NCBI GenBank assembly: GCA_001804285.1
Contig: MHFR01000042.1
Location: 14,725-78,724, forward strand
Reading direction: 5' to 3'
DNA: 64,000 bases
Origin: Candidatus Danuiimicrobium aquiferis
GTDB lineage: Bacteria > Omnitrophota > Omnitrophia > Omnitrophales > Danuiimicrobiaceae
The first letter of the stretch is position 1; each line of letters opens with the position of its first letter. Positions 1 through 51,439 of the stretch are shown here, in pieces. The notes under the pieces were generated by a model that had not been told where the DNA came from, did no database searches, and saw only the letters and a program-made list of their open reading frames with translations. Made by a program: the position numbers and the translations under genes.

Positions 1-85
1 AGTTTATAAAAATAGGCCGGATGAACTACGGAAAAATACACAAGATGCAAACCGCGTCAGATGGTATTTTGAGCAAATTGCAAGA

Positions 86-3000
86 TTGATTGATCAGGCA
101 GATTCTGAATTTTCAACGATGGACAGGGATCAAATTTCGCAACAGGGAATTCTAAGCACACATGAGCAATTTAAGCGGCATTTTCTCGCTTTACTCAAAC
201 GGCACGTGCAAGAATTTCAAGTTCCGATTTCTGAATATGAACTCCGGACATTCGTTTTAAAATGTCTAAAAGCTCCGGACTCACTTGATAAAGCGCTTCG
301 GGTAGAATTCAATTCCTTGTTGGATGAATTGGGAGCACTCAATTATCTCAAGATGGGCGAGTTGGCAGAAAGTTTTCAAACGTTAGCCGGCCGTTATGAA
401 GAATTAATAAAAGCCGCGGACAAAAAATGGATTCTTTCGGAGACGCGCGACCGAGTACAAATAGCGCAAAAAATTGCCGAAGACTTCGCCGGATTTGCGA
501 TAGATCCCAAGGATGAAGCGCGTAAGGTTTATGGACAAATGAGACGGAGCTCTATCCAGCGAAAAATTTTAAATCGGTTATCGCCGGTTCTTGCGGCTCA
601 TCAAGAGTTGCTTCAATCCGGATTGGAAGAGATTTACTTAAAAATTGATCTGGAAGAGAAAAATCGATTACGCAATCAATTCCATGCAAGCGATGTTCAT
701 GCCGCGGTGTTGGCTTATCTTCCGGAAGCGTTAAGGCCTTTATTTAATCTTGTGATTCAAACGATTGTTAAAAGACAGCCCGAAGATATTTTTGTTCATC
801 AGGCCGGTTTTCGGCTTGAATATTTTTTCGGACAGATCAATTTAAATGCGCGGAGCGCGGATCTTCTAAAAGATTTGAATCTTGTCGCGTATGCGGCGTG
901 GGAAATATTCCAAGCCTTGCCGCAAGTGGTGGCGGGGGCACGTTCCGAAGCGCGCAAAATTAGTGATAAGGCATCAGTCGTAAGGCATAAGAATTTAACT
1001 TATGCCTTAAGCCTTAAGCCTGAATTTTCGAGAGCCGAAGCGCGCAATACCCCGATGCGGCTTGACGTGACATTTCAAGGGACACCGTACAGATTTGAAA
1101 TGGATTCATGGAGTGTTGGCCAGAATCCCTCTCAATATCGGTTTCGATTATCGCAGGGCGTGCAGCACCGGGGCTATCTGATTGTTGATTACGATCAGCA
1201 AACAATCGGTTGGGAAGGGAAAGAACAGTTCCCGCGCGGTACGTTAATGGATCCGTTTTTAAAAGTGGCTTATGAGGCGTTGAAGGTAGATGAGAACAAA
1301 CGATCGGAAGTGCGGATGAAAGATAGTTCCGAGTTCCGGGGTAAAACAAAGAGATCAACTCGGAACTTTAAACTCGAAACTCAACCCCGTGCCCAAGTTC
1401 GTAACAATAAAGATAGTTCCAAGCAATTACCAATCGAAACGGACGAGAGTCCTCGCGAGACACAAGAGGCTCAAGCGAGGGCCGAAGCGCGGGGAATCGA
1501 ACAACAACTGGTCGGCACCTTTTTGCAAATGGCTTTATTTCATATACAGGACAACGCATCGCTTGCAGTTATTATAGAAGGTCCCGCGCCCAGAACTTTC
1601 TTTGAGGATCAAGACCAGCCGGAAGCAGTAGTTAATCGAGCGATAGGGCTTTTACAATCAATTTATGATCAAGTCAGAAGGGAGTCTCCTGACGGCAGCG
1701 GCGCTCCGTTTATTGTGAGAATGATGGAGATTTTGGGACGACCGACAGAACTGTTGCCAATGGACTTAGCTGCTGCGAAAAAATATTTTGCTTCTTCTGG
1801 TGAAGTGGCGGAAATAAAAAGCGAAAAGAAATTTGATCAATTTGAAGCACTTATGCCGGGCTGGCTTGCAAAACATCCGCCTTTTCTTTCGCAGTTAATT
1901 TCGGAACTTCCACCAATGGACGAAATCCAAAGGAAACATGGTGCCGCTCAAATACATACTGAAAATAGATATGCTGCCGGACCAATGAAACTTTTGGAAT
2001 GGAGTGTTCTGTTTGCAGGAAGTCCTCTGCGGCCCATTTATTATTATTTTGATTCAGATCCGGAATCGGGCGACATTGATAGCGTTACGGAAGTGGTTTT
2101 CGATTTAGCAGCTTATTTGAAAAGAGGGAAGTCCGGCGCGCATACGCTGATTTCGAGCGAAGAAATTGGGAGTCTATTCAAACAATTGGGACGATCTGAA
2201 GGAGCGACTCGATGGGTTATGACGGCTTCTTCTCCCGGTAGTTGGCAGAGCCGGATTAGCGTTACGCCAAGCGCTCAAGGGATGATGATTAAGATTGATG
2301 ACAATCATTTGGAATTTGATCCAAACACTCCTGACGATGAAGACGGCAACAAATTAATTAATTTTCTGAGGCAATATGGAATTGAGGAGCCGTTTTTTGG
2401 ATTGCCATTTCCGAAGCATGATGCTGCGACCACTGAGATAGCGCAATTTCTCGCCGATGTTTTTAAAGCCCGCGATGCGTTGCTTCGGAAATGGCGTATC
2501 CGGGCGAGTTTTGATCAGAGTTCCGGCCGAGTGACTTATGAAGCTGAAGGTGAAACCGTTTCTACGGATTTTGGTTACCAGGTTCCAATTCTTTCGGACA
2601 ACGGGGTTGTAACAGGGACGACGAAGGGGCCGGTTGAAGCAGAAATTAAAGACTTTCTTATGAAATTGGGAATTGATTTTAAGCCTTATGCGCAAGGGTT
2701 AACGATTCAAATGACTATCGGAAATGAGAATTATGATTTGGATGTGATCCATCATTTGCCTATCACGCTTGTAAAACTTGCTGAAGCTTTAGAAGCAAAA
2801 TCCAAAATGCCTTTCAGCGGTCACGGCCGGACAGTACCTGCGCTGGGAGTGTTAAATCAAGCAGGAGCTGTGCAATTGGTGACAGGCAGCTTAGACAAAA
2901 CCGTTCGTTTGTGGGACCTATCCACGGGTAAAGAAAGTAAGAAATTTGAAGGTTTCGCGGACGAAGTGACTGATGTTACCGTATCGCGTGACGGGCAGAA

Positions 3001-6000
3001 GGTGGCGGCGGCAAGCAAAGACGGCACGGTGAGGATTTGGAATGTCCAGTCAGATTCCGAACCAATCGTCATCGATACGCTTTCCGGGCCCCTTACTTCC
3101 ATTGATTTTTCTTTTGACGGCCAAAGGATTCTTACCGGCAGTAAACGCGGTGCGCTGCAACTTTGGGATGTGTTAATCGGTCGCTTTGTGGATGATTTGC
3201 CGATAAAGGCAAGAACAATTTTTGATGCCCAATTTTCTCCGGACGGACAAAGGATGGCTTCCTTATCCCATTCTATGGAAGATGGATTAAAGCTTTCCAT
3301 ATGGGACGTGCCTCAAAAGAAAATCATACGAACATTAGATCATGAGGCCTATCTGCAGACGTTTGCTTTTCATCCGAATGGCAAATGGTTGGTGACGGGA
3401 GATCAGGACTATCAAGTTTGTTTGTGGGACATTGAAACAGGCAGTAAACTCAGAACTTACCAGTCGGCCGTGAAACCCTTTGCTGTTGTTAATATACAAC
3501 CGCGCATTTTATCACTTGCCTTTTCTCCGGATGGGAAACTGGTTGCGGCCGGGAAACTGGATGGCAGTATTGAAGTGTGGGACGTTGAAACCGGCGGATC
3601 TCGTTACCTTTTCCAGAATTTGCCATTTAATGTTCCTACTTTAACATTTGCTCCGGATGGCCAATCTCTTATTTATTCAGGGTACAGACATAATGATACT
3701 TTTTTTGCGCCCATGCCGAGGATTATTGACTTGAGGCGCTATCCACAAACTTTCGTTTCGCATCGATATGGAAGAAGCGTTTCAAATGACGTGAGGCACT
3801 TCGTTTCAGGCGGGCAAGACATTACCCGTTCCGAAGTTCGTGAAGAAGAAGTGGCAGTCGGCAGTCAACAGTCCACAGATGTCATTGCGAGGAGCGGTAG
3901 CGACGAAGCAATCTCAGATTTGGGGATTGCTTCGGCAACACCTGGTTCACGTCTCGCAATGACGGGTAAATCCAGGGCCGAAGCGCGGGAAGGAAGCGCA
4001 CAAGTTCAAAAGAGCACACGTGCACAAGAAAATACGGAAACTTATGCGCCTATACCTGGTGCTCCTGTTCTCTTGCGAAGCAGCAGGTCTGAATCGCGGG
4101 CGGATGTTGATCCTAGGGTTTCTTCAGAACGTCATCGTGGTTCCCGACAACGCGGAGATAAAGGGAGTCGTCCATCCAGTCAAATGACAAACGGTAATGA
4201 ATATCAATTCGCGCTTCCCAAATATTTTTCGTTCCCTGGATTTTCTTTACATGGAGCGATGGATGTCGTGGATTTTCAGCAAGTATTTGGATTTGGCGGT
4301 CAGTTTTCTTTTGGATTGCAGATGGAAGAACTTGATAAAATTTTTGAAAGCTTTCGTAAGCGTATATTTTCACGAGTGGAGAAGTTTCAACAGTTCTTTA
4401 GCCGTGCCATTGCCCAAGATGCGTTTTGCGCGTTTGTTCTGGCTGGCAACGCTTTCTTTGGCTTGCCATTCCTTCGTCCAAAAATAAGCTTGGTCTGGAT
4501 TAATAGCAGAACGGCTTTTCAAGAAGATCGCAAACCTCAACACCTCTTGAGCTTCCGCCTCGGACAGCTGCTTAAAAATGATCGGCAGAATTTTATGAGT
4601 TTTCTTCGTTTCCATGTGCAAAATCTTAACACAGCACTCCATTTTATTCAACAGGAACTAACCGCTCGTTTGGAAATCAGCGGGGATATGGTGAATGGTA
4701 CGACTAATTACCACCAACCACTAATCACTAATCACGGACAAGTGAGGGCCGAAGCCCGCAACCTTGCGGCAGAAAATGGGACATTTTCTGCAATACCAAT
4801 CGAGGCGGGCAAGAGTACTTTTGATGTTTTGCCAGAAGCATCAAAACGTGCCGAAGCCCGGAAATCCGTGATATTAAGTTCGGGTAGAAACGGGAATACT
4901 CAAATTGATATGTTGAATATGGGTGAGAGGAATCCGGCGGCTCGCGTCGAGGATCTCCAAACCGAACACGCGCCCGTCTTTTCCGATGTCCATGATAATA
5001 CCGTCCCGGACTTTAATAGATTTTCCGACCTTTCCGGGTTGAAATCGTATGTAGAGCGCATCCGCTTCTTTATCAAATTCTATTTTCATCGGTTAACCCT
5101 TTTCCTCGAGCCAATAAGCCGTTATCAAAACCGTTTGATCCGCTTCCTTTTTGTAGACGACTTCCAGAATGTTATCATAGAAACGCTTTCTCGCCAAATA
5201 TCTTCCTCGATGAGCTTCTTTGGCGTTATCGGGACAGGTTACCGTTTCTTCGATCTGGCGTTGACTCAAATCCCGCTGCAAAATCCGTTTCTTGATATGT
5301 TTCGTGTATCTGAAAGTCATGAGTATCAGCTTCCATTATTAAAGAATAGGCAGCATAATAAGCCAGAAATGACTAATAATCAATATAATTATGCAGCAAA
5401 ATCAACCCGCTCCGAAGCGCGCCACGCTGAGGATAGCACCCAAGAAGTTTTTAATCAAAGCGCGCAAATGTCCTCGATACCGTCAAAATTGTTTACATCG
5501 AGGGCCGAAGCCCGCAACCTTGAAGCGGAAAATGGGACATTTTCTGCAACACCAATCGAAGCGGGCAAGAGTACTTTTGATGTTTCGACAGAAACATCAA
5601 AACGTGCCGAAGCGCGGATGCTTAAAGGTTTTAATACAGAGCAAAAAGCAATTATCGAAAAGACAGCGCATAAGCTGATCATGTTGTTCTTTTCTGACAA
5701 ATCCGTCACGGAACAGAATGCTTTGGAAAAAGATTTGATCAGCCGGATCCATCCCGCGACGTTGAGGCGGGTTATCTTTAGCAAAACAACTCTCATGACA
5801 ATCTCATGGACCCTGTGTATATCGGTCCTGCCGTTTGTTTTTCATCTATATAAATTAGTTGCTGTGTTTGGTTTTTTTGGCCTTTTTGCTCTGGGAAAGA
5901 TATTGGATCAGACCCTCAATGAAGAGACGCTGGGCTTTGTCAGCAAAGCCTATCCCGAAATATTTATCGGAACAGAATTGCCCGGATTTAAATTTGAACG

Positions 6001-9000
6001 CGGGGTCATTCATGAAATGCTGCACGTGTTGGCTAAAATGAAAAAAATTAAATATGATTCCCCATTCGCTTCCGCATTCGGCTTTCTGGCGGAGCATACT
6101 TCCTCGGATCCCGGGAAACCGCAGCTTTCCCCTTATCTGAGGCGTCCTGTTGGCAATTTGGGGGAAGGGATGGCGTTGGTTGAAAAAAATTTATCACCTC
6201 AAGAACGATGGGGGGCCTTGATTGCAAAATCGCTTTTTTCTGACAATTCTGAAAACATAACCAAACAAGATCCACGTGACTTTTTTGTCTCTTTAGCGCA
6301 TTGGTTGGAACCTGAAACGCGGGAATCCCGGGTATTGGGGGAATTATTGTCTGGGATGGCTTATGCCCTATCTCAGAAGAATTGGTTTGGTCTCGAGGAT
6401 GCGTGGGTTTATTTGGCCCGCATGGCAAAAGGAGAGCATCCTTTTGCTGTAGAAGAAGACCTAAACAATAAACAAAAAGAAAGAATATCCCATTCCAAAT
6501 TCCGCTCCGAAGCGCGCCAAGAGAGCGCACAAGAACACAAGCGCACAGGGACACAAGTAGAGATGAAAGCTGACGCGCCTGTGCCTTATGCTCCCATGCT
6601 CTTACGAAGCAGGGCCGAAGCGCGTTACAGCCGCAATAATCCAGAGCAGTCATCAATCGAAACGCGCAAGAGTCCTCGCGAGACACAAGAGGCTCAAGCG
6701 AGGGCCGAAGTGCGCGACGATAAAGACAGTTTAAAGCGTTCATCAATAGGAAGTGCACGAGAGTCCTCGATACGTTCCGAAGGGCTTGTATCGAGGGCCG
6801 AAGCCCGGACAATCTCAGAGCAAAAACGCTTTAGCCTGACACTGGAACACGTGAAGCCGCTTATTGAAAGAATTGCTGACACAGCCTATTTCCGTTGGCT
6901 TGCTAGAGATAAAGACAGCAGAACCGGTAAAAATGAAGGATTCGAAAAAGTGCAATGGCGGCGCTTGATAGATATTTCTGATCGTGCATGGGATCTTGAA
7001 AGTATGAGGCGGGAAGCATTAGGACAACTAGAAAAGTCCAATATGAACCCGGAATATTTAGAAAAAATAAAAAGCGAAACAAAAATAGAAATAATTATTT
7101 TGGAATATTTCGAGGAAGTTTTAGGGAGTTTAATCGGGAAATTAGAGTCTCCATTGAAATTGTCATTGAAAATGTTTTTGTTAAAAGCATACCCGCGTTC
7201 TGGGGAATGGACGGACTCTTTATTGGAAGAGGGAGCTATCGAAGCTGCGCGGAAAGAATATTATGACATCATTAATGAAATACTTAAGTGGCTTGATCCA
7301 ACATCAGTTTTGGAACGAGTTAATTCTCCCGAAGATTATCGAATTGATGTTTTAGGGCGGCCCAAGGATGGAGATATCCCTCGGATGGTTGACTTTCGAG
7401 GCAAACTTATCGCCAGAGAGAAAAAAGCCAAGCACCGAGCACCGTTTGCTTTTCGAAACGAACGGTTTGATACGATGATTCAAATTGGTCCCCAAGGCCT
7501 GGAAGAAGAAGAGATGCGCTTTCTTCAAAGTGCTTTTGATGAAAAGCCTGAAACTGATTCAGCCCCTACATTTTATGCCGTATTTTTTCCTCCATTTAGC
7601 TATTTATTGATCAGGAGATCGGTAATTAAGCAACGCGTAGTTTTCGATGTTGTTCCGGGTCGATGGGAGAAAGCGGTTCCGAATCCTAAAAAAATGCTCC
7701 CCTTTTTTATTAAGCGAGTGATCGATTACTATCAATTATTAGATAATCGCAAACCTCCTCAGATTTTGCTCGAGTTAGCTACGATCCCCATGCATTGGAA
7801 TGAAAGAAAGGTTCTTTTTGAGGAAAGCTATTTTGAGCCAGGTGATCCGGATTTTCGATCTGCGGCAACAACATATCCAGTACATTTTGAAAATGTATTG
7901 CGTAAGATTCGCTCCCGTTCCGAAGCGCGCCACCTTGAGGATAGCAATGATGTCATTCCCGCGAAGGCGGGAATCCAGCTGGATCCCCACTTTCGTGGGG
8001 ATGACACCGATTCCCGTGCCGAAGTACGTTCACAGATAGAAAAGACAAAACCCGAAAGTCCGATGGATTTGGTATTCGAGACTTTAGATCCACAAAAAAT
8101 AGCTGCTCAGATTGCAGCATCTAAGTATATAGAAGGTGAACTTGGAGAATTGAGCGCTCAAGTCACAAAAACAGGGCAAGGCAAACTGGATTCTGCGAAA
8201 GTCGAACTGGGCGCATTTTCGAAAAATTTAATAACAGAAATTAATAAACGTTCTGAAGTAAGACAAATTGCGGATTTTATATTTTCCGACGAAATAGAAC
8301 AGATGGCCAAGGATAGGGTGAATTTGTCATTCCCGCATGCTGTAAGCGGGAATCTATGGATCCCCGCTTTCGCGGGGATGACGGACGTGCTTATTAATCG
8401 TGCGCGTCTGGTTGTTTTCAATTCTGTTATTGGAGAGAATATTGCGATGGCCGATGAAGCATTACCAGCTTTGAGTGAGATCTCAAGCGAAGCGGCATTT
8501 TTACTCGCGCATCCGGATATTTTGAATGAAGCATATCGAATCAAATTTGGAAAAAGAACAGACAATGCAACCATACGCGCCGATCACGAATGGATCATCG
8601 GCATGGAATTTTTACCTCAAGCGTCAGATCCGCGGAGAATGGCGGCTGAACAGTTTTTGCGGAATTTAGTGCAAGCAAAAGACCGGGTGGCATTGACTTA
8701 TCAAAAAAATTCTCCTTACGCCGATATGGCAAGCGAGTTATCACAATCAATTCCGCAATTGTCACTTGTGGGGCACCGGTCAGATCTTGATCAAAAGAGA
8801 TTCGAAAGAGTATTTGGTATTTCGTATCCGTTTGTTATTGTGTCGGATAGCGTACCGTTTAAGACATCAACATGGCGGAAAAACGGAGTTCGCATTAATC
8901 CATATATGGCGCTTCGGTTGAAATTGGAATTTTCACAATTTATACGGCTGACACAATTTGCTGTCGAAGCCGGACTTCTCCGGAAGCAAATAGAAGAAAT

Positions 9001-9112
9001 TTCCGGAGTTTTTCCAGAATTAACACCTGAAATTCTTAATTCGGCTATAGATCTTCTGAATGAGCTTGCTCAGACGGAACTTGTTAGGCAGGCAATTAAT
9101 CGGGCGGCGTAA
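86..9112 (+). CDS. Giant (~3000 aa) multidomain protein with a central 7-blade-type WD40 beta-propeller; interrupted in-frame by repeat modules, MITEs and antisense TA cassettes
   Basis: A single 9027-nt open frame cannot arise by chance at this GC. WD40 repeats (LWD/IWN/VWD motifs with GH..WD spacing) lie around aa 930-1200. Non-repetitive segments look like ordinary globular protein. The start is uncertain: TTG at 86 or ATG at 119. A terminator hairpin plus T-run follows at 9176-9232. Confidence 0.6.
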   Translation: MIDQADSEFSTMDRDQISQQGILSTHEQFKRHFLALLKRHVQEFQVPISEYELRTFVLKCLKAPDSLDKALRVEFNSLLDELGALNYLKMGELAESFQTLAGRYEELIKAADKKWILSETRDRVQIAQKIAEDFAGFAIDPKDEARKVYGQMRRSSIQRKILNRLSPVLAAHQELLQSGLEEIYLKIDLEEKNRLRNQFHASDVHAAVLAYLPEALRPLFNLVIQTIVKRQPEDIFVHQAGFRLEYFFGQINLNARSADLLKDLNLVAYAAWEIFQALPQVVAGARSEARKISDKASVVRHKNLTYALSLKPEFSRAEARNTPMRLDVTFQGTPYRFEMDSWSVGQNPSQYRFRLSQGVQHRGYLIVDYDQQTIGWEGKEQFPRGTLMDPFLKVAYEALKVDENKRSEVRMKDSSEFRGKTKRSTRNFKLETQPRAQVRNNKDSSKQLPIETDESPRETQEAQARAEARGIEQQLVGTFLQMALFHIQDNASLAVIIEGPAPRTFFEDQDQPEAVVNRAIGLLQSIYDQVRRESPDGSGAPFIVRMMEILGRPTELLPMDLAAAKKYFASSGEVAEIKSEKKFDQFEALMPGWLAKHPPFLSQLISELPPMDEIQRKHGAAQIHTENRYAAGPMKLLEWSVLFAGSPLRPIYYYFDSDPESGDIDSVTEVVFDLAAYLKRGKSGAHTLISSEEIGSLFKQLGRSEGATRWVMTASSPGSWQSRISVTPSAQGMMIKIDDNHLEFDPNTPDDEDGNKLINFLRQYGIEEPFFGLPFPKHDAATTEIAQFLADVFKARDALLRKWRIRASFDQSSGRVTYEAEGETVSTDFGYQVPILSDNGVVTGTTKGPVEAEIKDFLMKLGIDFKPYAQGLTIQMTIGNENYDLDVIHHLPITLVKLAEALEAKSKMPFSGHGRTVPALGVLNQAGAVQLVTGSLDKTVRLWDLSTGKESKKFEGFADEVTDVTVSRDGQKVAAASKDGTVRIWNVQSDSEPIVIDTLSGPLTSIDFSFDGQRILTGSKRGALQLWDVLIGRFVDDLPIKARTIFDAQFSPDGQRMASLSHSMEDGLKLSIWDVPQKKIIRTLDHEAYLQTFAFHPNGKWLVTGDQDYQVCLWDIETGSKLRTYQSAVKPFAVVNIQPRILSLAFSPDGKLVAAGKLDGSIEVWDVETGGSRYLFQNLPFNVPTLTFAPDGQSLIYSGYRHNDTFFAPMPRIIDLRRYPQTFVSHRYGRSVSNDVRHFVSGGQDITRSEVREEEVAVGSQQSTDVIARSGSDEAISDLGIASATPGSRLAMTGKSRAEAREGSAQVQKSTRAQENTETYAPIPGAPVLLRSSRSESRADVDPRVSSERHRGSRQRGDKGSRPSSQMTNGNEYQFALPKYFSFPGFSLHGAMDVVDFQQVFGFGGQFSFGLQMEELDKIFESFRKRIFSRVEKFQQFFSRAIAQDAFCAFVLAGNAFFGLPFLRPKISLVWINSRTAFQEDRKPQHLLSFRLGQLLKNDRQNFMSFLRFHVQNLNTALHFIQQELTARLEISGDMVNGTTNYHQPLITNHGQVRAEARNLAAENGTFSAIPIEAGKSTFDVLPEASKRAEARKSVILSSGRNGNTQIDMLNMGERNPAARVEDLQTEHAPVFSDVHDNTVPDFNRFSDLSGLKSYVERIRFFIKFYFHRLTLFLEPISRYQNRLIRFLFVDDFQNVIIETLSRQISSSMSFFGVIGTGYRFFDLALTQIPLQNPFLDMFRVSESHEYQLPLLKNRQHNKPEMTNNQYNYAAKSTRSEARHAEDSTQEVFNQSAQMSSIPSKLFTSRAEARNLEAENGTFSATPIEAGKSTFDVSTETSKRAEARMLKGFNTEQKAIIEKTAHKLIMLFFSDKSVTEQNALEKDLISRIHPATLRRVIFSKTTLMTISWTLCISVLPFVFHLYKLVAVFGFFGLFALGKILDQTLNEETLGFVSKAYPEIFIGTELPGFKFERGVIHEMLHVLAKMKKIKYDSPFASAFGFLAEHTSSDPGKPQLSPYLRRPVGNLGEGMALVEKNLSPQERWGALIAKSLFSDNSENITKQDPRDFFVSLAHWLEPETRESRVLGELLSGMAYALSQKNWFGLEDAWVYLARMAKGEHPFAVEEDLNNKQKERISHSKFRSEARQESAQEHKRTGTQVEMKADAPVPYAPMLLRSRAEARYSRNNPEQSSIETRKSPRETQEAQARAEVRDDKDSLKRSSIGSARESSIRSEGLVSRAEARTISEQKRFSLTLEHVKPLIERIADTAYFRWLARDKDSRTGKNEGFEKVQWRRLIDISDRAWDLESMRREALGQLEKSNMNPEYLEKIKSETKIEIIILEYFEEVLGSLIGKLESPLKLSLKMFLLKAYPRSGEWTDSLLEEGAIEAARKEYYDIINEILKWLDPTSVLERVNSPEDYRIDVLGRPKDGDIPRMVDFRGKLIAREKKAKHRAPFAFRNERFDTMIQIGPQGLEEEEMRFLQSAFDEKPETDSAPTFYAVFFPPFSYLLIRRSVIKQRVVFDVVPGRWEKAVPNPKKMLPFFIKRVIDYYQLLDNRKPPQILLELATIPMHWNERKVLFEESYFEPGDPDFRSAATTYPVHFENVLRKIRSRSEARHLEDSNDVIPAKAGIQLDPHFRGDDTDSRAEVRSQIEKTKPESPMDLVFETLDPQKIAAQIAASKYIEGELGELSAQVTKTGQGKLDSAKVELGAFSKNLITEINKRSEVRQIADFIFSDEIEQMAKDRVNLSFPHAVSGNLWIPAFAGMTDVLINRARLVVFNSVIGENIAMADEALPALSEISSEAAFLLAHPDILNEAYRIKFGKRTDNATIRADHEWIIGMEFLPQASDPRRMAAEQFLRNLVQAKDRVALTYQKNSPYADMASELSQSIPQLSLVGHRSDLDQKRFERVFGISYPFVIVSDSVPFKTSTWRKNGVRINPYMALRLKLEFSQFIRLTQFAVEAGLLRKQIEEISGVFPELTPEILNSAIDLLNELAQTELVRQAINRAA
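937..1047 (+). repeat. Repeat cluster 1 inside giant ORF: 2 copies of degenerate direct repeat (core CCGAAGCGCG) flanking a ~80-nt palindromic module
   Basis: The two repeat copies are 'cgttccgaagcgcgc' and 'gagagccgaagcgcgc'. The spacer holds a perfect 11-bp hairpin, taaggcataag/cttatgcctta. The translation is in frame: ARSEAR...SRAEAR. Confidence 0.6.
1300..1497 (+). repeat. Repeat cluster 2: 3 degenerate repeats and 2 modules (~73 and ~77 nt); second module is a near-identical copy of one at 6655-6715
   Basis: Repeat copies are 'cgatcggaagtgcgg', 'cccaagttcgt' and 'gggccgaagcgcgg'. Module 1 holds a 10-bp hairpin, gttccgagtt/aactcggaac. The module 'caatcgaaacg..agtcctcgcgagacacaagaggctcaagcgagggccgaag' recurs about 95% identical at 6655. 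Confidence 0.6.
3828..4100 (+). repeat. Repeat cluster 3: 3 degenerate repeats (ccgaagttcgtg / gggccgaagcgcgg / tctgaatcgcgg) with ~130 and ~100-nt modules, immediately upstream of antisense TA cassette 1
   Basis: In-frame translations are RSEVR, RAEAR and RSESR. The module peptide 'YAPIPGAPVLLRSSRSESR' resembles 'PVPYAPMLLRSRAEAR' at 6570-6625. Confidence 0.5.
4113..4373 (-). CDS. Type II toxin, RelE/ParE family
   Basis: 86 aa. The C-terminal region reads 'NPRHPSLHVKKIQGTKNIWEARIDIHYRLSFDWMDDSLYLRVVGNHDDV', typical of RelE/ParE. The start overlaps the stop of the upstream antitoxin by ATGA. It lies antisense and fully inside the giant ORF. Confidence 0.7.
   Translation of the reverse strand: MKIYAYESFQKFYQVLPSAIQKKTDRQIQILAENPRHPSLHVKKIQGTKNIWEARIDIHYRLSFDWMDDSLYLRVVGNHDDVLKKP
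4370..4651 (-). CDS. Antitoxin, DUF2281-like, partner of RelE/ParE toxin
   Basis: 93 aa, immediately upstream of and overlapping the toxin gene. The motif 'EAQEVLRFAIFLKSR' resembles DUF2281 antitoxins. Confidence 0.5.
   Translation of the reverse strand: MNKMECCVKILHMETKKTHKILPIIFKQLSEAEAQEVLRFAIFLKSRSAINPDQAYFWTKEWQAKESVASQNKRAKRILGNGTAKELLKLLHS
4740..4866 (+). repeat. Repeat cluster 4 between the two TA cassettes: 'gagggccgaagcccgcaacc' + ~90-nt module + 'cgtgccgaagcccgg'
   Basis: The module 'gaaaatgggacattttctgcaataccaatcgaggcgggcaagagtacttttgatgtttt' recurs about 95% identical at 5533-5590. The motif gggccgaagccc can form a GGGC-CGAA-GCCC hairpin. Confidence 0.6.
4874..5089 (-). CDS. 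DUF2283-family protein (putative antitoxin of DUF4258/DUF2283 pair)
   Basis: 71 aa. 'MKIEFDKEADALYIRF...GKDGRVFGLEILDAS' matches the DUF2283 signature. It follows the DUF4258 gene with a 3-nt gap. Confidence 0.7.
   Translation of the reverse strand: MKIEFDKEADALYIRFQPGKVGKSIKVRDGIIMDIGKDGRVFGLEILDASRRIPLTHIQHINLSIPVSTRT
5093..5320 (-). CDS. DUF4258-family protein (putative toxin of DUF4258/DUF2283 pair)
   Basis: 75 aa. 'MTFRYTKHIKKRILQRDLSQRQIEETV...VLITAYWLEE' matches DUF4258. It lies antisense and fully inside the giant ORF. Confidence 0.7.
   Translation of the reverse strand: MTFRYTKHIKKRILQRDLSQRQIEETVTCPDNAKEAHRGRYLARKRFYDNILEVVYKKEADQTVLITAYWLEEKG
5400..5620 (+). repeat. Repeat cluster 5: 'gctccgaagcgcgcc' / 'gagggccgaagcccgcaacc' / 'cgtgccgaagcgcgg' with ~80 and ~85-nt modules (duplicate of module at 4760-4845)
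   Basis: Directly read from sequence. In-frame translations are RSEAR, RAEAR and RAEAR. Confidence 0.6.
6500..6815 (+). repeat. Repeat cluster 6: 5 degenerate repeats with ~95, ~75, ~60 and ~15-nt modules (includes copy of ESPRETQEAQA module)
   Basis: Repeat copies are 'gctccgaagcgcgcc', 'agggccgaagcgcg', 'gagggccgaagtgcgcg', 'cgttccgaaggg' and 'gagggccgaagcccgg'. Confidence 0.6.
7915..8035 (+). repeat. Repeat cluster 7: 'cgttccgaagcgcgcc' ... 'cgtgccgaagtacgt' flanking an in-frame copy of MITE family A
   Basis: The in-frame translation is 'RSEARHLEDSNDVIPAKAGIQLDPHFRGDDTDSRAEVR'. Confidence 0.6.
7951..8005 (+). repeat. MITE family A copy (double hairpin gtcattcccgc-gaag-gcgggaatcc / ggatcccc-actttc-gtggggatgac) inserted in-frame in giant ORF
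   Basis: The same element occurs in intergenic regions at 11529, 17724, 25221, 31967 and 39010. It has outer gtcat..atgac inverted ends. Confidence 0.8.
8326..8382 (+). repeat. MITE family A copy inserted in-frame in giant ORF (translates SFPHAVSGNLWIPAFAGMTDV)
   Basis: The sequence is 'gtcattcccgcatgctgtaagcgggaatctatggatccccgctttcgcggggatgac', almost identical to the intergenic copy at 31967-32030. Confidence 0.8.
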
Positions 9113-9175
9113 AACATGGAAATTCATAAAAAACAGTAGGCAGTTGCCAGTCGGCAGTAAGCAATTAGCACTAAG

Positions 9176-9232
9176 AAAAAAGGGGACACACAGCTCGACC
9201 AATTCGAACAAGCTGTATGTCCCCTTTTTTTA
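9176..9232 (+). terminator. Rho-independent terminator after giant ORF
   Basis: The stem is ggggacacacagc / gctgtatgtcccc, followed by a run of 7 T. It is nested in a larger imperfect palindrome spanning 9140-9280. Confidence 0.7.
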
Positions 9233-9436
9233 CTTTTTGCTATCCTGTATGTGCAGACTGCTGCCTGCCGACTGCTTACTCTTTTCCCCAACTTACTTAT
9301 TGACTAAATTTATCTGCATATTATAATCATACCACTTTTTAAAGACTTTTTATTCCACTACAAAGTACCAGTTTTTTAATGTTTCAAAAGCTTAAAAAGT
9401 TCTATTTATAAGCTACTTAAAAAGAGAAGGCTTACT

Positions 9437-11413
9437 TTGTTTTTGTTGTTAAGATTCCTCACCCTAACATTGTTCTTTCTCAATGTTTTTGGCTGCCGCG
9501 AGAAATCGTCACCGTCCGTTTTAGACAGCATTCCTCAGGGGAAAAGTTTACTTTCCATGTCGAATTTTGAAGTGATTGATCATTTCAATGTTGAGAATGG
9601 GAAAAATCAATTCAAACAAACCTGGAAAATTAACATTCCAACCGGTGCGGAAATTAAATTAAGCCGGGATCCCGAGGATGCGATTTATCACGGAGGTTCG
9701 CTTGGCGTAGAATATTCTATTCCCCCGAACCAGACTGCGGGCATATCCACGACGTTTAAAACACTTGATTTAAGCCGGGCCGAAACGGTGTTAATGTTAG
9801 TCCGTTCAGAGGACTTGAAAAATTATAGCGGCCGGCTGCAGCTGGTTCTTCGGGATCAGCGGGATAACAGGCAAGAAATCGATATTAAAAAATATGTCGA
9901 AGAAACCCGCGGCAACTGGGAAAAAATATTGATTCCGAAAAAAGATTTTGGGAAAATCAATTTCGACCAAATCGGAGAAGTTCAAATTGAATGGCGCGCC
10001 GGAAGTAAACCCGTAGCAGGCAAGATGGCAATTGATGAGATTGCGTTTGCTGGGCCGAAGGAATTGATTTTTGAATCAATGCTCGACAATTTAAAAGGGT
10101 TCCCGAAAGAAGCCATAGCCGAATCTCGGCGAAAAGAATTGATCGGGACAAAAGATGAAAAAGAGTTCCTCGGAAAAATCGCGGCAGATACATGGAAGTA
10201 TTTTGAAAATGTGGTGGACAAGAAAACAGCGCTCCCCGAGGATCATATTCGTACGGGAAGAACGCTTGCGATCGGAAATTACACGGGACCGACCAATATC
10301 GCTCTTTATTGGCTTTCGTGTGTCGGTGCTTATGATCTTTCTCTGATCTCTGAAAAAGTGGCGATCGAGAAAATTAAAACATCGCTCGATACGCTTGCCG
10401 GCATGGAGCATCCGGAATACGGTTTTTATTATAATTTTTATGAAACACACACGCTTCGCGCGACGAAGCGTTATTTATCGACCATTGACAATGCGTGGCT
10501 TGCGGCGGCTCTTGTAGTTCTTCGGCAGGCGTTTCCGCAGGAATTCAGTGCCCGGGCGAATGAGATTTTCAGCCGGATGAATTTTTCGAAATTTTATGAT
10601 GAAGCAAACGGCCAGTTAAGAATCGGATTTGATGAAGACTTAGGGGAACTATCGCCGTATCATTACGGCCTTCTCGCTTCTGAAGCGAGGCTTGCAAGTT
10701 ATATCGGAATCGGAAAAGGGGATTTAAAACAGGAACATTGGGCGAGGATTTACCGGACGTTGCCGAAAGAATGGAACTGGCAGAAACAGGTTCCGCAGGG
10801 AAGCCCGAAGGTTTTATTGAACGTTCCTATATTTCAGGGGTTTTATACATACCGCGATAAGAAATTTGTACCAAGCTGGGGCGGATCGCTCTTTGAATAT
10901 TTAGCGCCGACACTCGTTGTGGATGAGCAAACATACGGTCGCGAAAATTTGGGCAGGAACAATGAAATTGTGACAGATCTACATATCTTATATGCCATCC
11001 GGGATAAGAAATATCCTGTTTGGGGCATTGCTCCGTGCGCGATTCAATACGGGAGAAATTGGCAATATAAAGAATATGGGATTCCGGAATTAGCCGCAAA
11101 AGGATATCCGGACGAAGGAGTGGTTGCGCCGTATGCGAGTTTTCTTGCGCTCGCGACACGGCCCAAAAATGCGGTCGAAAATTTCCGGAACCTGCTTGCC
11201 GAATACGATGAAATCTACGGCGAATTCGGTTTTTACGATTCGGTGGTTGTCGCGAGCGGAAAAGTGGATCAGCAATATTTATTAATTGATCAAGCGATGA
11301 ATTTTATTGCGATGGTAAATTACCTGAAACAAGGATCGATCACGAAGCGGTTTCATTCGGATCCGGTCGGTAAAAAAGCGGAGGTTTTATTGAAAGAAGA
11401 AAAATTTTTTTGA
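9437..11413 (+). CDS. Secreted lipoprotein, putative (alpha/alpha)6-barrel glycoside hydrolase (GH144/DUF3131-like) with N-terminal CBM-like beta-sandwich
   Basis: TTG start follows an RBS 'agaagg'. A signal peptide and lipobox 'LNVFGC' are present. The N-terminal ~170 aa are similar to the adjacent 203-aa CBM-like protein. The family assignment rests on weak motif memory. Confidence 0.45.
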   Translation: MFLLLRFLTLTLFFLNVFGCREKSSPSVLDSIPQGKSLLSMSNFEVIDHFNVENGKNQFKQTWKINIPTGAEIKLSRDPEDAIYHGGSLGVEYSIPPNQTAGISTTFKTLDLSRAETVLMLVRSEDLKNYSGRLQLVLRDQRDNRQEIDIKKYVEETRGNWEKILIPKKDFGKINFDQIGEVQIEWRAGSKPVAGKMAIDEIAFAGPKELIFESMLDNLKGFPKEAIAESRRKELIGTKDEKEFLGKIAADTWKYFENVVDKKTALPEDHIRTGRTLAIGNYTGPTNIALYWLSCVGAYDLSLISEKVAIEKIKTSLDTLAGMEHPEYGFYYNFYETHTLRATKRYLSTIDNAWLAAALVVLRQAFPQEFSARANEIFSRMNFSKFYDEANGQLRIGFDEDLGELSPYHYGLLASEARLASYIGIGKGDLKQEHWARIYRTLPKEWNWQKQVPQGSPKVLLNVPIFQGFYTYRDKKFVPSWGGSLFEYLAPTLVVDEQTYGRENLGRNNEIVTDLHILYAIRDKKYPVWGIAPCAIQYGRNWQYKEYGIPELAAKGYPDEGVVAPYASFLALATRPKNAVENFRNLLAEYDEIYGEFGFYDSVVVASGKVDQQYLLIDQAMNFIAMVNYLKQGSITKRFHSDPVGKKAEVLLKEEKFF

Positions 11414-11528: not shown

Positions 11529-11595
11529 GTCATTCCCGCGAAAGCGGGAATCCAGACGAATAGCTGGATGCCCGCTAAAAACATGCGGGCATGAC
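11529..11595 (+). repeat. MITE family A copy (intergenic)
   Basis: 'gtcattcccgcgaaagcgggaatccagacgaatagctggatgcccgctaaaaacatgcgggcatgac'. Confidence 0.8.
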
Positions 11596-11678
11596 AACAA
11601 ATGGAAACTGCCGTTGCTTCAAAACGCTAAATAGATACTTATTAATCAGTAAAGAAACGATTTGAAAGGAGCCGGAAG

Positions 11679-17623: not shown

Positions 17624-17880
17624 TGTCTCATTAACTCCTCGGCGCTCGGACAACGTCCGCCAAGGGCGGCCGAACTCGCGGCGAGGAGTTAATGAGACAA
17701 CTGGTTTACATCTACTCATAATTGTCATTCCCGCGGAAGCGGGAATCCAGACGCCGCTTTGGGCTCCCCGGACTTGTCCGGGGGGGAATGGCGCCCGAAG
17801 GGCGAGCCGAGCAGGGAACGAAAAAATTCCCAGCGAGGCCAGATGTTGGAAGGTGCCCCGGGCTTGCCCGGGGGGAAACC
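17624..17880 (+). repeat. Repeat-packed intergenic region: 19-bp-stem palindrome (ttgtctcattaactcctcg...cgaggagttaatgagacaa), half copy of MITE family A (17724-17750), and two ccccgg..ccgggg hairpins
   Basis: The inverted repeats were read directly from the sequence. The 'ccgaactcgcgg' core recurs at 22054-22080 and 22165-22176. Confidence 0.7.
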
Positions 17881-19133: not shown

Positions 19134-20597
19134 ATGACACAAAATCATTCTTCATTTAGAGATCTTGTTAATTTCGTCGTCCGGAATGGCGAAATGAGAA
19201 ATCGATTATTATTCACGGCGGGCATCCTCATCCTTTTTAAGCTGGCGTCTTTCATTCCGCTTCCGGGCATTGATATTGTTAGCGCTCGGGAATTTGCGGA
19301 AAGTTCGTTTATGCAATTGTCCAAGTTTGAATATTTATCTAAAGTATCCGTGTTGATGTTGGGAACGGCTCCGTTTCTTTCCGCGTGTTTATTAATCCAA
19401 TTTGCGACGGCCGTCATTCGTCCATTAAGAGCCGCGTCTTTTGGCGGTGAGGTGGGAAGAGAATTGATCACGCGATTGACGATTTTGATTGCCTTAATCT
19501 TGAGTTTGATTCAGGGCTTATTGATCGGTCAATTGCTCGAACAGCCCAATTCCTTCGGCGGCGGTGTTTTAGTTCCGAGTCCCGGTTGGGGATTCCGGCT
19601 GATGTGTATGCTCACTATGACGGCTGCAACGGTGTTGATTTATTTCGCTGCGCAAGCAATTCATCGGTATGGAATCGGAAACGGATTTGCGCTGATGACC
19701 GTTTTGTATGTTCCGTTCGAATTTATTTTTGCCGTTCGAAAAACAATCGCTGAAATTCAAATAAAAATGGTTTCAATCGAAGGGTTTATTATTTCCGGTA
19801 TCTTGGGGATTCTTTTTTTTGTGGCGCTTCTTTTAATGTCAAAGGTAAAAGAAAGGATTCCGTTAGTCAAGAACGGAAGCGACGCCGGAGAAATCGGCGT
19901 AAGGCTGACGATGGCCGGCAAGATGCCTTTTGTTTTGGCTGGAGTGATGATGATGCTTCCGAGCGTTTTGAGTATTTATAGAAATATTCCAATGTTAGAT
20001 CAGGCCTACAGTGTCATCACGAAAAATGGTTATGCCGAGAAAGGACTGTACGTCCTCTTTATATTTATTTTTACGCGCTTTTATTTCCTTCTTGTCTTTG
20101 ATACAAAATATGTTTGTTCGCTGATCCATCGGTATGGTTATCAAATCAAAACTGCAGGGGGCCATGAATCCGAGACGAAATTTTTATCCGTACGGTTAAA
20201 GAAAATGCAAACCGGAGCGGGGCTGTTTTTAACATTCGTTTTTCTTTTTCCGGTTTTTGCGATCTCTCTTGCGAAGCCTGAAAATTCTCTCATTTTATTT
20301 ATCCGCGATATTGGTCTTCTTTTACTGATCGGTGTTGCGCTTGATTTTCTGGCGCAGATTAAATTTTTAAAATTGAAATACGATTCCGGAGTCGGGAAAT
20401 GGGCCGTTGCCTATACGGCTTTCGACGAAATCGAAGCGGATGTGAAGCGTATATTTTTGAACGGGAATGAAATTCCGGCACTTATCGAACCGCTTCGATT
20501 TTCCTGGGGGCTTCCCATCCGGACGATGGTGGACGAGTACCGGTTGTATGTGCCGGGGGAGAAGGTTGAGGAGGCGCGGAGAGTGCTTGAAAGATAA
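19134..20597 (+). CDS. Divergent SecY-like protein with C-terminal DUF2007-like domain
   Basis: SecY transmembrane signatures are conserved: 'RLLFTAGILILFKLASFIPLPGID', 'LGTAPFLSACLLIQ', 'RYGIGNGFALM' and 'LLLIGVALDFLAQI'. The extra ~75 aa 'WAVAYTAFDEIEADVKRIFLNGNEIPALIEPL...EYRLYVPGEKVEEARRVL' resemble DUF2007. It does not lie in a ribosomal spc operon. Confidence 0.65.
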   Translation: MTQNHSSFRDLVNFVVRNGEMRNRLLFTAGILILFKLASFIPLPGIDIVSAREFAESSFMQLSKFEYLSKVSVLMLGTAPFLSACLLIQFATAVIRPLRAASFGGEVGRELITRLTILIALILSLIQGLLIGQLLEQPNSFGGGVLVPSPGWGFRLMCMLTMTAATVLIYFAAQAIHRYGIGNGFALMTVLYVPFEFIFAVRKTIAEIQIKMVSIEGFIISGILGILFFVALLLMSKVKERIPLVKNGSDAGEIGVRLTMAGKMPFVLAGVMMMLPSVLSIYRNIPMLDQAYSVITKNGYAEKGLYVLFIFIFTRFYFLLVFDTKYVCSLIHRYGYQIKTAGGHESETKFLSVRLKKMQTGAGLFLTFVFLFPVFAISLAKPENSLILFIRDIGLLLLIGVALDFLAQIKFLKLKYDSGVGKWAVAYTAFDEIEADVKRIFLNGNEIPALIEPLRFSWGLPIRTMVDEYRLYVPGEKVEEARRVLER

Positions 20598-25081: not shown

Positions 25082-25220
25082 CATAATACTCGTAATAATT
25101 AAATATAAGTCATAAAAAATTCCGGAATATTTTCTCGCGATAACGCACCGGCGGGCAGACAAACGTTTATTCCGTGGCCATGTAAAAAGAAATCATACAA
25201 GTAAAATTGTGGCCTTTCGT

Positions 25221-25322
25221 GTCATTCCCGCGAAAGCGGAAATCCATAGTTCGATGGATCTCCGCTTAAAGCACGGCGGAGCAGTGCTGCTTCGCTGCAT
25301 GAGGGGATGACATAAAGTACGG
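25221..25322 (+). repeat. MITE family A variant with expanded second hairpin
   Basis: 'gtcattcccgcgaaagcggaaatcc...ggatctccgc...gaggggatgac'. Confidence 0.7.
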
Positions 25323-31940: not shown

Positions 31941-31966
31941 AAGCGGTTTCGTAAGTTCGCACAAGT

Positions 31967-32030
31967 GTCATTCCCGCATGCTCTTAGCGGGAATCCACAG
32001 ATAATGGATCCCCGCTTTCGCGGGGATGAC
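31967..32030 (+). repeat. MITE family A copy (intergenic, immediately after rnfD)
   Basis: 'gtcattcccgcatgctcttagcgggaatccacagataatggatccccgctttcgcggggatgac'. Confidence 0.8.
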
Positions 32031-32071
32031 AGATCTTATGAAACCGCTTCGAATAAGTTTTTGGAGAAAAT

Positions 32072-48967: not shown

Positions 48968-51439
48968 ATGATAGATTGGATCACTCGAGTTATTCAGCCG
49001 ATAGTTCCGATTAAACGTGAAGAATGGACAAAATCCATTCTCATGTTTTTTTATTTCTTTTTTACGATCACGACTCTCTATATTTTAAAACCCATCCGGA
49101 ATTCTATTTTTCTTGAAGAACACGGCGCGAGCAGCCTTCGCTACGCGTACATGGGAGAGGTGGTATTCCTATCGGTGATCGCTTTTTTCTATGCCAAAAT
49201 TGCGAATTGTTTTAAACGGAAAAATATTCTGGTTTCCATCACCATTTCTTTTTTTCTGGTAAACAGCCTGATATTCTGGGTTATTTTTAAACTCGGCTGG
49301 GCAAAATGGGTCGCATTTTTCTTTTATATTTGGGTTGCGTCGTATTCGATTACGGTTGTGACGCAATTTTGGACGGTTGCGAACGATCTTTTTAACGTAG
49401 ATGAGGCAAAACGCCTGTTCGGTTTTATTTCAAGCGGCGGCGGATTGGGCGGAATGTTTGGAGGTTGGATAACGGACAAAACAGCGCTTGTGCTCGGATC
49501 GGAAAATTTATTATTTATTGTTGCCGGATGCCTGCTGATTTCAATTGTTTTTGTAAACAGTATTTGGAAAAAGGAAGAACCCGCTTTTAATCATCAGTTG
49601 GATCAGGAGCGCTTGACAGCTCAGCGCCAGCCAGACCAGGGTTCCCACGTAAAAGATTACACAAAAAAAGCGTGGAAAGTCATTTTTGATACAAGATATA
49701 TTTTGTTGATTACCGCGCTTGTCGTGATTACGAAAGTCGCTTCCACGCTCATCGATAATCAATTTAATGCCGTTGTGGAACTAAATATTGCCGGCAAAGA
49801 TCTGAAAACAAAATTTTTCGGCAATTTTTTTTATTATTTGAATTTTATTACATTTATTTTACAGCTTCTGATTGCCAGCCGTGTTCTTCGCTACTTCGGA
49901 ATCGGAATTCCGCTTGTCATGCTTCCGGTGGGATTGCTTTTCGGTGCGGGATTGACGTCTTTTATTCCAATTCTTTTTTTTGCCCAATTTACGAAAATCT
50001 TCGACGGCAGTATGAATTATTCTATCAGCCATTTAAGCAAAGAGATCCTGTATCTTCCGATCCCGTTGAATGTGAGATATCGAGTCAAGCCGATTATTGA
50101 TATGCTGGCGTATCGGGCATCAAAAATGATCGCCGGATTGCTTATTATTATTGTTTCTTTTATATTTCCTATAACAGATGAGAAATTGGGCTATGTGGTT
50201 TTGTTTTTAGTTCCCGTTTGGCTTGCCATTATTTGGGCGACGCGCCGTGAATATTTATTAACGATTAAGAAGTTGATTTCGAAAGTGCGCAAACAGAAAA
50301 AAGTTTCATCTGCCGTTCAAAATCGGGCGATCGAGGCATTGACCACACTGGAAGGCGAGAGATCGTATAAAAATTTGAGAAAACTTCTTGTGCATCGTTC
50401 GTCTGCGGCTGAAAAAATTTCAAGTACGGCATGTTTAGCGCTTTATAGCGGAGCGAGTAATATTGACCGCGTGCGTCAGCTTGCCCATGAAATGATTCGT
50501 TATGAGGCGCTTGAGCTTAAAGAAATTAATATGGAGGAATTAGATCAAATGCTATGCCGGACGGATTTTGAAAAACCGACGGTTTTGGATGATTGTCTCG
50601 CGAAACTTCTTGAGCAAGACGAGCGGTACCAAGGCGATTTAAAGGTTTTATTTCAAGAGCATGAGTCAAGACTCCTGTTACAAATTATTAATTTCCTGAG
50701 AAACCCGAAAGAAGAAATTGCGAATAAACATAAGGCCGTTCTGATTTTAACGCTTTTAAGAACGCAAGGTGCAGTAGATGTGTTATTGGAGAATCTGAAA
50801 TTTTCGGAAGATCATTCTTATCGATTTATTTTAATTCAAGGGCTTAATCGGATTTGGGCAAAAGAAAAAGGAGTTCTGATCAGTCCCACGATTGTGAAAA
50901 AAGAAATGATAAAAGAAATTCATGAATATAAAGCCATTGATTCTGTGTATTGGGAATATAAAGACAGAAAAAATGTGATACGGACAGAAGAAGATTATTT
51001 GATGGCGACACTTCATGTGATTCGCGAGGAAGCCGTGGAGCGAATTTCCAGATTGCTTGCACTCCTTTATGAAAGCGATCTTATCCGTTTGATCTATGAT
51101 CGCTTTTCTGACGGGGATGCCGAGAAACATATACGGGCGAATGCGCTTGAACTTTTGAGACATGTCGCAGAACCAGGAATCCTCCGGATGCTTAAACCCG
51201 TGATTGATCCAAAACATAAGAAAATTTCAGATAAAACGCTTGAAGAGATACTTAAACGATTTGTGGGGGGGCGTGATAACTGGCTTGTTATTTGCGGGCT
51301 TTTCCTGATCCTTGAGCTGCATTTAAAGCATTTATATCCTTCCATTCAGGAGAAAACCGCGTCAGAATCGCCTCTGATACGCGAAACGGCGGAAATTATT
51401 CTTGCCAAGTCTGCCGGTGACGATAAAAATCTCCGGTAA
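48968..51439 (+). CDS. TLC-family (ATP/ADP-antiporter-like) transporter fused to C-terminal HEAT-repeat domain
   Basis: The N-terminal ~440 aa are polytopic. 'WTVANDLFNVDEAKRLFGFISSGGGLGGMFGG' matches the TLC signature FANE..EAKRFY. The C-terminal ~380 aa are helical HEAT-like repeats. Confidence 0.6.
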   Translation: MIDWITRVIQPIVPIKREEWTKSILMFFYFFFTITTLYILKPIRNSIFLEEHGASSLRYAYMGEVVFLSVIAFFYAKIANCFKRKNILVSITISFFLVNSLIFWVIFKLGWAKWVAFFFYIWVASYSITVVTQFWTVANDLFNVDEAKRLFGFISSGGGLGGMFGGWITDKTALVLGSENLLFIVAGCLLISIVFVNSIWKKEEPAFNHQLDQERLTAQRQPDQGSHVKDYTKKAWKVIFDTRYILLITALVVITKVASTLIDNQFNAVVELNIAGKDLKTKFFGNFFYYLNFITFILQLLIASRVLRYFGIGIPLVMLPVGLLFGAGLTSFIPILFFAQFTKIFDGSMNYSISHLSKEILYLPIPLNVRYRVKPIIDMLAYRASKMIAGLLIIIVSFIFPITDEKLGYVVLFLVPVWLAIIWATRREYLLTIKKLISKVRKQKKVSSAVQNRAIEALTTLEGERSYKNLRKLLVHRSSAAEKISSTACLALYSGASNIDRVRQLAHEMIRYEALELKEINMEELDQMLCRTDFEKPTVLDDCLAKLLEQDERYQGDLKVLFQEHESRLLLQIINFLRNPKEEIANKHKAVLILTLLRTQGAVDVLLENLKFSEDHSYRFILIQGLNRIWAKEKGVLISPTIVKKEMIKEIHEYKAIDSVYWEYKDRKNVIRTEEDYLMATLHVIREEAVERISRLLALLYESDLIRLIYDRFSDGDAEKHIRANALELLRHVAEPGILRMLKPVIDPKHKKISDKTLEEILKRFVGGRDNWLVICGLFLILELHLKHLYPSIQEKTASESPLIRETAEIILAKSAGDDKNLR

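Follow-up and report, generated by a model that had tools for sequence, protein, structure and literature searches.

Toxin-antitoxin-type operons nested antisense between the modules of a giant, motif-punctuated reading frame in an Omnitrophota genome

The window analysed here is a stretch of 64,000 nucleotides from contig MHFR01000042.1 of 'Candidatus Danuiimicrobium aquiferis', an uncultured groundwater member of the Omnitrophota. It begins with the 3' part of a giant modular open reading frame (ORF) on the plus strand, inside which two toxin-antitoxin (TA)-type operons were identified on the minus strand. The sense frame of the giant ORF stays open across both operons. This open frame is real and not a chance effect, and it is maintained by selection. 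Both operons are bracketed by copies of a repeat that encodes a five-residue peptide motif, R-[S/A]-E-x-R, which is present at all module junctions of the giant protein. With somewhat better than even confidence in the explanation as a whole, the plus-strand ORF is regarded as a genuine gene that would be translated through the TA genes, and the TA operons as derived, lineage-specific secondary insertions into the junction region between a WD40 and a zincin-like module.

The first pair, TA1, comprised a gene for a RelE-like toxin at 4113-4373 (86 aa, GTG start) and a putative antitoxin gene at 4370-4651, both on the minus strand. The toxin matched a RelE-like toxin of PHROG over its full length (E 8.5e-9); its Pfam matches to ParE_like (2.7e-4) and Gp49 (9.4e-4) were both under the cutoff. 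Full-length plasmid homologues with 35-40% identity were found in Clostridium and Alicyclobacillus; the Clostridium gene lies directly behind an AbrB/MazE/SpoVT antitoxin gene and overlaps it. A sequence search of the PDB with the toxin returned no match. The partner gene overlaps the toxin start by GTGA, not by ATGA as had been read before, and it probably starts in fact at one of two ATG codons, 4642 or 4615. Its product was weakly related to Pfam DUF2281, below the cutoff (E 0.003), and had no match among plasmid or PHROG proteins. Placement and overlap of this ORF are typical for type II antitoxins, and it was assigned as a putative antitoxin gene by position.

The second pair, TA2, was firmly assigned, as was the first toxin. 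Its upstream gene at 5093-5320 on the minus strand (75 aa) codes for a DUF4258 protein (PF14076, E 3.5e-9, 37.3 bits against a cutoff of 25), the nearest database homologue of which is 53% identical. The downstream partner at 4874-5089 on the same strand (71 aa) codes for a DUF2283 protein (PF10049, E 1.5e-16, 60.7 bits against a cutoff of 23). Both genes are adjacent and co-oriented, with a gap of 3 nt. A sigma-70-like promoter match, TTGATT-17-TATTAT, was located upstream of the DUF4258 gene at 5355-5383 on the minus strand; it is a single consensus match that alone is not statistically significant. Hairpins in the region 3800-5700 were checked as terminators and no terminator-like sites were found. 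Scans of the TA proteins with PADLOC and NCBIfam gave nothing useful. The preliminary description had placed two real TA pairs on the minus strand, wholly inside the plus-strand ORF, and their positions and gene character were confirmed, with DUF2283 and DUF4258 above the Pfam gathering score and the remaining families below it. Judged by sequence, both pairs were accepted as TA-type operons that are presumably active. They are oriented in reverse to the giant ORF and would probably be driven by their own promoters. Antisense interference by transcription of the giant gene through them, as suggested in the preliminary description, may occur.

It is very improbable that the sense strand encodes a functional protein here and the TA ORFs arose antisense to it by chance or are relics, or that the giant ORF is a decaying or misannotated gene fusion. 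Such an origin would agree with the observation that long open frames are common in the codon-aligned antisense direction of real genes, and with the annotation by gene callers, which comprises the giant ORF only, none of the four TA proteins being on record for this genome. It is contradicted by the family assignments, as two of the four products match over their full length and exceed curated cutoffs and a third strongly resembles RelE-like toxins, and by the operon-like spacing with an overlap in one pair and a short gap in the other. Exactly the two TA modules are also without sense codon signal or sense homologue, as detailed below, and a decaying fusion is difficult to reconcile with 22.8 kb of stop-free sequence and a conserved family architecture. 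As TA-type operons, the pairs are a rare case of well-known gene families that lie wholly antisense within another gene and were missed by standard gene callers. Embedded antisense overlapping genes were described for Escherichia coli and Pseudomonas, where a young novel ORF was overprinted on an old gene (PMC8850804, PMC9927249, PMC7457138). These cases likewise consist of two long ORFs on opposite strands of the same DNA, mostly in the codon-aligned antisense frame. In the giant ORF, however, the situation is reversed: the embedded genes belong to old, well-known families, and the enclosing frame looks like a meaningless spacer.

The open sense frame was evaluated by drawing synonymous codons anew according to local usage, with the four TA protein sequences fixed. 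Under this procedure, the plus frame was open over the four genes with a probability of 0.116 x 0.022 x 0.132 x 0.170 = 5.7e-5, which supports the earlier statement that the sense frame is open across both cassettes. Over the region 4088-5425, the other two plus frames contained 22 and 35 stops. Apart from the RelE-like gene, which is offset by one base, the TA genes occupy the codon-aligned antisense frame. The three codon-aligned genes used TTA or CTA in none of 22 Leu codons, compared with a genome share of 21%, and TCA in none of 11 Ser codons (genome share 14.5%).

Codon log-likelihoods per codon were calculated for the sense frame of 19 long modules after training on the rest of the window. 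Values ranged from +0.09 to +0.19 in 17 modules and were +0.02 and +0.01 in the two TA modules, which were the only ones without a sense-strand codon signal. The sense translations of the two TA modules had no Pfam match, and these modules are foreign to the sense frame. Nature has provided a particularly clean experiment in these nested operons: a sense frame without meaningful coding content is still kept open, which is evidence that ribosomes must read through. The operons would have persisted only without the TTA, CTA and TCA codons, or their equivalent, that would stop the sense frame, and ribosomes could therefore still reach the four modules downstream.

The full giant ORF comprises 22.8 kb and 7,594 aa and is annotated as a single hypothetical protein (GenBank OGW97378.1 / OGW80563.1) of Omnitrophica bacterium RIFCSPLOWO2_12_FULL_44_17 / RIFCSPHIGHO2_02_FULL_45_28 from the Rifle aquifer metagenome. 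Only its last 3,036 codons and the stop are located in the window (2-9112, plus strand), and the ORF continues past the left window end; the length of 9 kb given previously was too short. All 22,785 of 22,785 bases were identical across three assemblies, and the protein in read-level assemblies agreed by 99.5-99.9% of amino acids, the TA region included. An assembly chimera or error behind the giant ORF was ruled out by these independent assemblies. The other two plus frames had 155 and 217 stops over the 9.1 kb of the ORF within the window, where the ORF frame had none; in the linkers, which look non-coding, the numbers were 9 and 29 versus none. An alternative genetic code was rejected; all three standard stops are missing from the frame, so that a reassignment is unnecessary. 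Domains in the giant protein were HEAT, cytidylyltransferase-like, HATPase_c, methyltransferase and WD40, accompanied by zincin-like and HAD-like folds. A hydrophobic, signal-like segment near the N-terminus was recognised by inspection. The annotated start overlaps an upstream PilZ/HTH gene (L245, 459-1130), and the first approximately 60 codons cross a REP-like sequence. Since homologues start with this hydrophobic segment, the true start is probably near Met62.

The CCGAAGCGCG-type repeat was found to be the coding sequence of the peptide motif R-[S/A]-E-[A/V/I..]-R. The giant protein contained 36 copies, compared with 0.4 expected, at all module junctions and not merely beside the TA cassettes. 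These copies split the protein into 19 long modules and a number of short units, of which there are about 18 with lengths of 16-49 aa. All copies in the window were in the frame of the giant ORF and on the plus strand; the 55 kb beyond the ORF had none. The motif was written with varying codons within the gene, its residues being constant, as in CGT TCC GAA GCG CGC, AGG GCC GAA GCC CGG, CGA TCG GAA GTG CGG and CGT TCT GAA GTA AGA. Other Omnitrophota giant homologues encoded the motif by different codons, e.g. CGG AGT GAA GTA CGA and AGG TCT GAA GTG CGT, and in the loci L241 and L242 the motif was retained with switched Ser (AGT/TCN) and Arg (AGR/CGN) codons. Because the codons vary freely and the residues are kept, in other species as well, the motif was read as acting at the protein level. 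It is conserved as protein and lineage-specific, and most likely behaves as a processing site rather than as a DNA recombination site. A pattern scan of genome contigs for two motif copies 77-100 nt apart gave, among the matches listed, only chance ones in high-GC genomes. The corresponding scan of metagenome contigs for three copies returned only TPR repeats ('PDYAEAR', with a period of 34 aa) and other tandem repeats, and no relatives.

The TA region is arranged as a series of motif-bounded units, all read on the plus strand. The last real sense module before it, at 1496-3826, contains a WD40 beta-propeller (Pfam WD40 families up to E 1.9e-60) and has a codon log-likelihood of +0.12 per codon. 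It is closed by the junction motif RSEVR (3827-3841), followed by a short linker unit of 44 aa at 3842-3973 with a REP-like hairpin, recognised as an inverted repeat, that reads 'SDEAIS..RLAMT'. The motif RAEAR (3974-3988) then precedes a 32-aa linker unit found by repeat analysis, unit D (3989-4084), which is duplicated in the ORF (3968-4083 and 6497-6612, 73% identical). A degenerate motif RSESR (AGG TCT GAA TCG CGG) at 4085-4099 is the left border of TA cassette 1 and RAEAR at 4745-4759 its right border. Between this motif and the next RAEAR (4847-4861), the left border of TA cassette 2, lies linker unit C (4744-4862) with two strong hairpins (z -4.4). RSEAR at 5408-5422 is the right border of TA cassette 2. 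Each cassette is thus bracketed by repeat copies as described earlier, and the two copies are direct and not inverted repeats. From motif to motif, the cassettes comprise 215 and 182 codons, where about 180 each had been estimated. A second copy of unit C at 5500-5618 is 92% identical, and its final RAEAR leads into the next sense module, module 16 (5621-6505). Downstream of it, a linker array at 6503-6808 consists of four junction motifs (6503, 6611, 6701 and 6794) and three short units. The conserved C-terminal module of the family occupies 8267-9109; it has a HAD-like fold and ends with ...RQAINRAA.

An integron-like or other site-specific mobile unit with the repeat as its site, as implied by the preliminary description, was not supported. 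A cassette system acting on DNA, in which CCGAAGCGCG and its hairpin neighbours would be attC-like recombination sites for inserting and shuffling modules and the peptide motif a by-product, was judged improbable. It could draw on the motif bounding every module, both TA cassettes included, on many Ala-type copies lying immediately 3' of a strong hairpin, on two copies of unit C (92% identity) that enclose TA2 and unit E and on homologous modules with different neighbours in different proteins. Yet the amino acids of the motif are fixed while its codons vary freely, both within the gene and in other species. The copies are direct rather than inverted and lack a GTTRRRY-type core, some junctions are a bare 15 nt and free of hairpins, the DNA motif is not found in intergenic DNA, and the need for an open frame is left unexplained. 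Inverted cores of the attC type (RYYYAAC ... GTTRRRY) were absent on inspection, and the boundaries consist of direct CCGAAGCSCG copies that all point the same way. Neither an integrase nor a transposase was detected among the scanned genes of the window, hits of 43-61 aa aside and with 61765-63651 and a few others unscanned, or within 1 kb upstream of the giant gene, where the PilZ/HTH gene is located. In integron arrays, TA cassettes bring along their own promoter, often run against the direction of the array and are placed between repeated boundary sequences. The giant ORF differs from them by the absence of IntI and attC-type inverted cores; its boundaries are a translated peptide motif and its whole array is a single ORF.

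The reading of the motif as a protein-level junction was extended to relatives of the giant protein. They were found by an index-free HMMER search; a word-indexed search with the region 5606-9109 returned the same species only. No match was obtained in a word-indexed protein search with the concatenated linker units or in a metagenome search for loci related to module 16. Members of the family were P0008/P0023, P0009, P0012, P0013, P0018 and P0027, the last from the same genome, in addition to the 7,594-aa protein itself (P0002). They share a signal-peptide-like start and an N-terminal module of approximately 700 aa. In blastp, this module matched P0008, P0009, P0012 and P0013 with E values of 1e-92 to 1e-126, P0027 with 6e-27 and P0018, from a Chlamydiota genome, with 2e-13. 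The C-terminal module is also common to some members, and module 16 is conserved as well. The family consists of giant modular proteins from Omnitrophota, and a more distant relative is encoded in a Chlamydiota genome. Its architecture comprises a signal peptide, the conserved N-terminal module, variable enzyme and regulatory modules and the conserved C-terminal module. At least two more giant ORFs of the family were observed on another contig of the same genome (L244, 2001-18527 and 1-1780), one of 5,508 aa (OGW98046.1) directly preceded by one of 3,695 aa. A trio of DUF2283, DUF4258-like and HTH genes was present on the minus strand of L243 (1937-2721), immediately upstream of a further giant gene of this family; with 26-28% identity, its relationship to the DUF2283/DUF4258 pair of the window is distant.

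The motif was counted 36 times in P0002, nine times each in P0008 and P0009 and seven times in P0027. P0008 and P0009 are from genomes with 52% G+C, and their R-S-E-x-R codons differ; Ser is written, among others, as AGT and Arg as AGG. In P0002, P0008/P0023 and P0009, motif copies border module 16 and the C-terminal module despite differing neighbours. In the sister lineage of P0012 and P0013, xSLG (e.g. GRSLG and ANSLG) replaces R-S-E-x-R at the corresponding places, including the one right after the N-terminal module; P0013 (L243, 3001-12921) has nine SLG in 3,306 aa.

The comparison also bears on the origin of the TA operons. In P0008 and P0009, the homologue of module 16 comes straight after a single junction without any TA genes, and the 5,508-aa paralogue has seven junction motifs and no antisense cassette. 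For these reasons the TA operons are viewed, at the slightly-better-than-even confidence given above, as probably derived insertions, added secondarily to the junction region between the WD40 and zincin-like modules.

Module 16 is a candidate for the processing protease. It begins with two helices that by inspection look membrane-spanning, followed by a zincin-like domain with HExxH. The HExxH was invariant across seven homologues, and the fold was closest to thermolysin-like zincins; the module looks like a zinc metalloprotease. It was present in three of three proteins with RSExR-type junctions and missing from two of two with the xSLG type (P0012 and P0013). A more far-reaching proposal, which we put forward tentatively and hold to be possible rather than probable, is that R-[S/A]-E-x-R, or xSLG in the sister lineage, is a dedicated polyprotein processing site. 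The multi-enzyme giant ORFs of Omnitrophota would be made as one chain and cut into separate enzymes, perhaps by their own membrane zincin module, and the junctions would be neutral landing slots for stop-free foreign DNA such as the two reversed TA operons and MITE-like hairpin units. Within the main explanation, we infer that the junction motif is a proteolytic processing site, which the embedded HExxH module could cut. If so, the nonsense peptides antisense of the TA genes (approximately 215 aa and 182 aa) would be excised and discarded, and the junctions would therefore become tolerant slots for foreign DNA.

Several observations weigh against the main explanation. The insertion of the TA operons is argued from distant homologues, and no close relative without the cassettes was found. 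P0018, P0019 and P0021 have the HExxH module without RSExR motifs, and the pairing of protease and site is a mere correlation in three proteins, which makes it a lead and not a demonstration. The Ala-type motif copies trail DNA hairpins and accompany short repeated units restricted to the giant genes of this genome, which hints at an additional DNA- or RNA-level process. The duplicated unit C on either side of TA2 could stem from recombination. Finally, the open frame could serve the coupling of transcription and translation instead of a polyprotein.

In this last case, an open frame would keep ribosomes on the 23-kb mRNA and avert Rho-dependent termination and polarity, and the motif would have another role, for instance as a flexible linker or docking site. 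This was considered unlikely. Rho is encoded in the genome (37555-38970), and the linkers and TA antisense stretches are stop-free though they look non-functional as protein, both of which fit the coupling of transcription and translation. It offers no explanation for a five-residue motif conserved across species at every junction or for the lineage-specific switch to xSLG, and ordinary operons escape polarity without gene fusion. Regarding the hairpins, RAEAR copies (936-1048, 4740-4870, 5403-5626 and 6606-6812) usually stand directly after a strong hairpin ending ...GAGG|GCCGAAG. The hairpin sequences vary between unit families, and the units were seen only in giant genes of this genome. Recombination between linker units could have helped to bring in the TA cassettes. 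A search of the region 1-9500 with Rfam detected no ribozyme or other RNA family, and an explanation by self-cleaving RNA was unsupported.

Processing of the giant protein into separate enzymes would have parallels in other systems. Viral polyproteins have one ORF with many units, a short junction motif that varies between lineages and a protease encoded inside. The giant ORF would share this layout, its protease being a candidate; here it is a gene of a cellular chromosome and known from sequence alone. MARTX toxins of Vibrio are very large secreted proteins with variable effector modules that are freed by an internal protease cutting the linkers between modules, and their repertoire is strain-dependent. 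They employ a cysteine protease domain that cuts after Leu and possess glycine-rich repeats, whereas the giant protein combines R-[S/A]-E-x-R with a zincin-like module. The two are unrelated in sequence, and the giant protein is a candidate for processing only.

Giant genes are a hallmark of Omnitrophota, and their products could be single giant chains or polyproteins. Cleavage of Omnitrophota giant proteins has been suspected, while 'information about cleavage points' was lacking (West-Roberts et al., 10.1101/2023.11.21.568195). A 'multi-enzyme' class 1 with the same kinds of domains was included in a catalogue of these proteins (Nielsen & Lui, 10.64898/2026.06.07.730766). The multi-enzyme proteins come from the same phylum and combine unrelated domains (methyltransferase, HATPase, HEAT and WD40, with HD, cNMP-binding and NUDIX in relatives) on one polypeptide with a signal peptide or membrane helices. 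With 7,594 aa, the protein described here is below the catalogue cutoff of 10,000 aa, which is a threshold of that study and not a biological one. Neither of the two preprints contains the junction motif, cleavage points or nested antisense genes. The motif is a concrete and testable candidate for the cleavage points, and it also provides a rule by which giant proteins can be divided up when their structures are to be predicted unit by unit.

That insertions in the giant gene survive only if they preserve the frame is indicated a second time, and independently, by a genome-wide MITE/REP palindrome, TGTCATTCCCGC..GCGGGAATCCA..TGGATCCCCGC..GCGGGGATGACA. It was present in four intergenic gaps of the window (11530-11600, 17723-17760, 25220-25312 and 31966-32031) and twice inside the giant ORF, where it is read through stop-free as 'VIPAKAGIQ' and 'IPAFAGMT'. 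Both copies in the ORF are in frame on the plus strand; one is located at 7951-8006 and the other, without flanking motifs, inside the C-terminal module at 8325-8382. The intergenic copies carry stops, whereas the copies inside the ORF are open. Rickettsia palindromic elements and intragenic MITEs are palindromic repeats that lie in frame in protein genes and are read as an extra peptide (PMC10969869). The two in-frame copies of the window, with their intergenic siblings, resemble them. The Rickettsia elements have a length of 100-150 bp and encode their own peptide, in contrast to the TA insertions, which are operons of approximately 0.6 kb with genes on the other strand.

Two further genes of the window were noted. 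A SecY-family ORF at 19134-20597 on the plus strand (Pfam 3.3e-34) is located among biotin and fatty-acid genes, away from any ribosomal-protein cluster, and may be a second SecY paralogue. A protein of 823 aa at 48968-51439 on the plus strand showed a weak match, below the cutoff, to NTP/NDP exchange transporters (TIGR00769, 3.5e-13), which would fit a host-dependent lifestyle.

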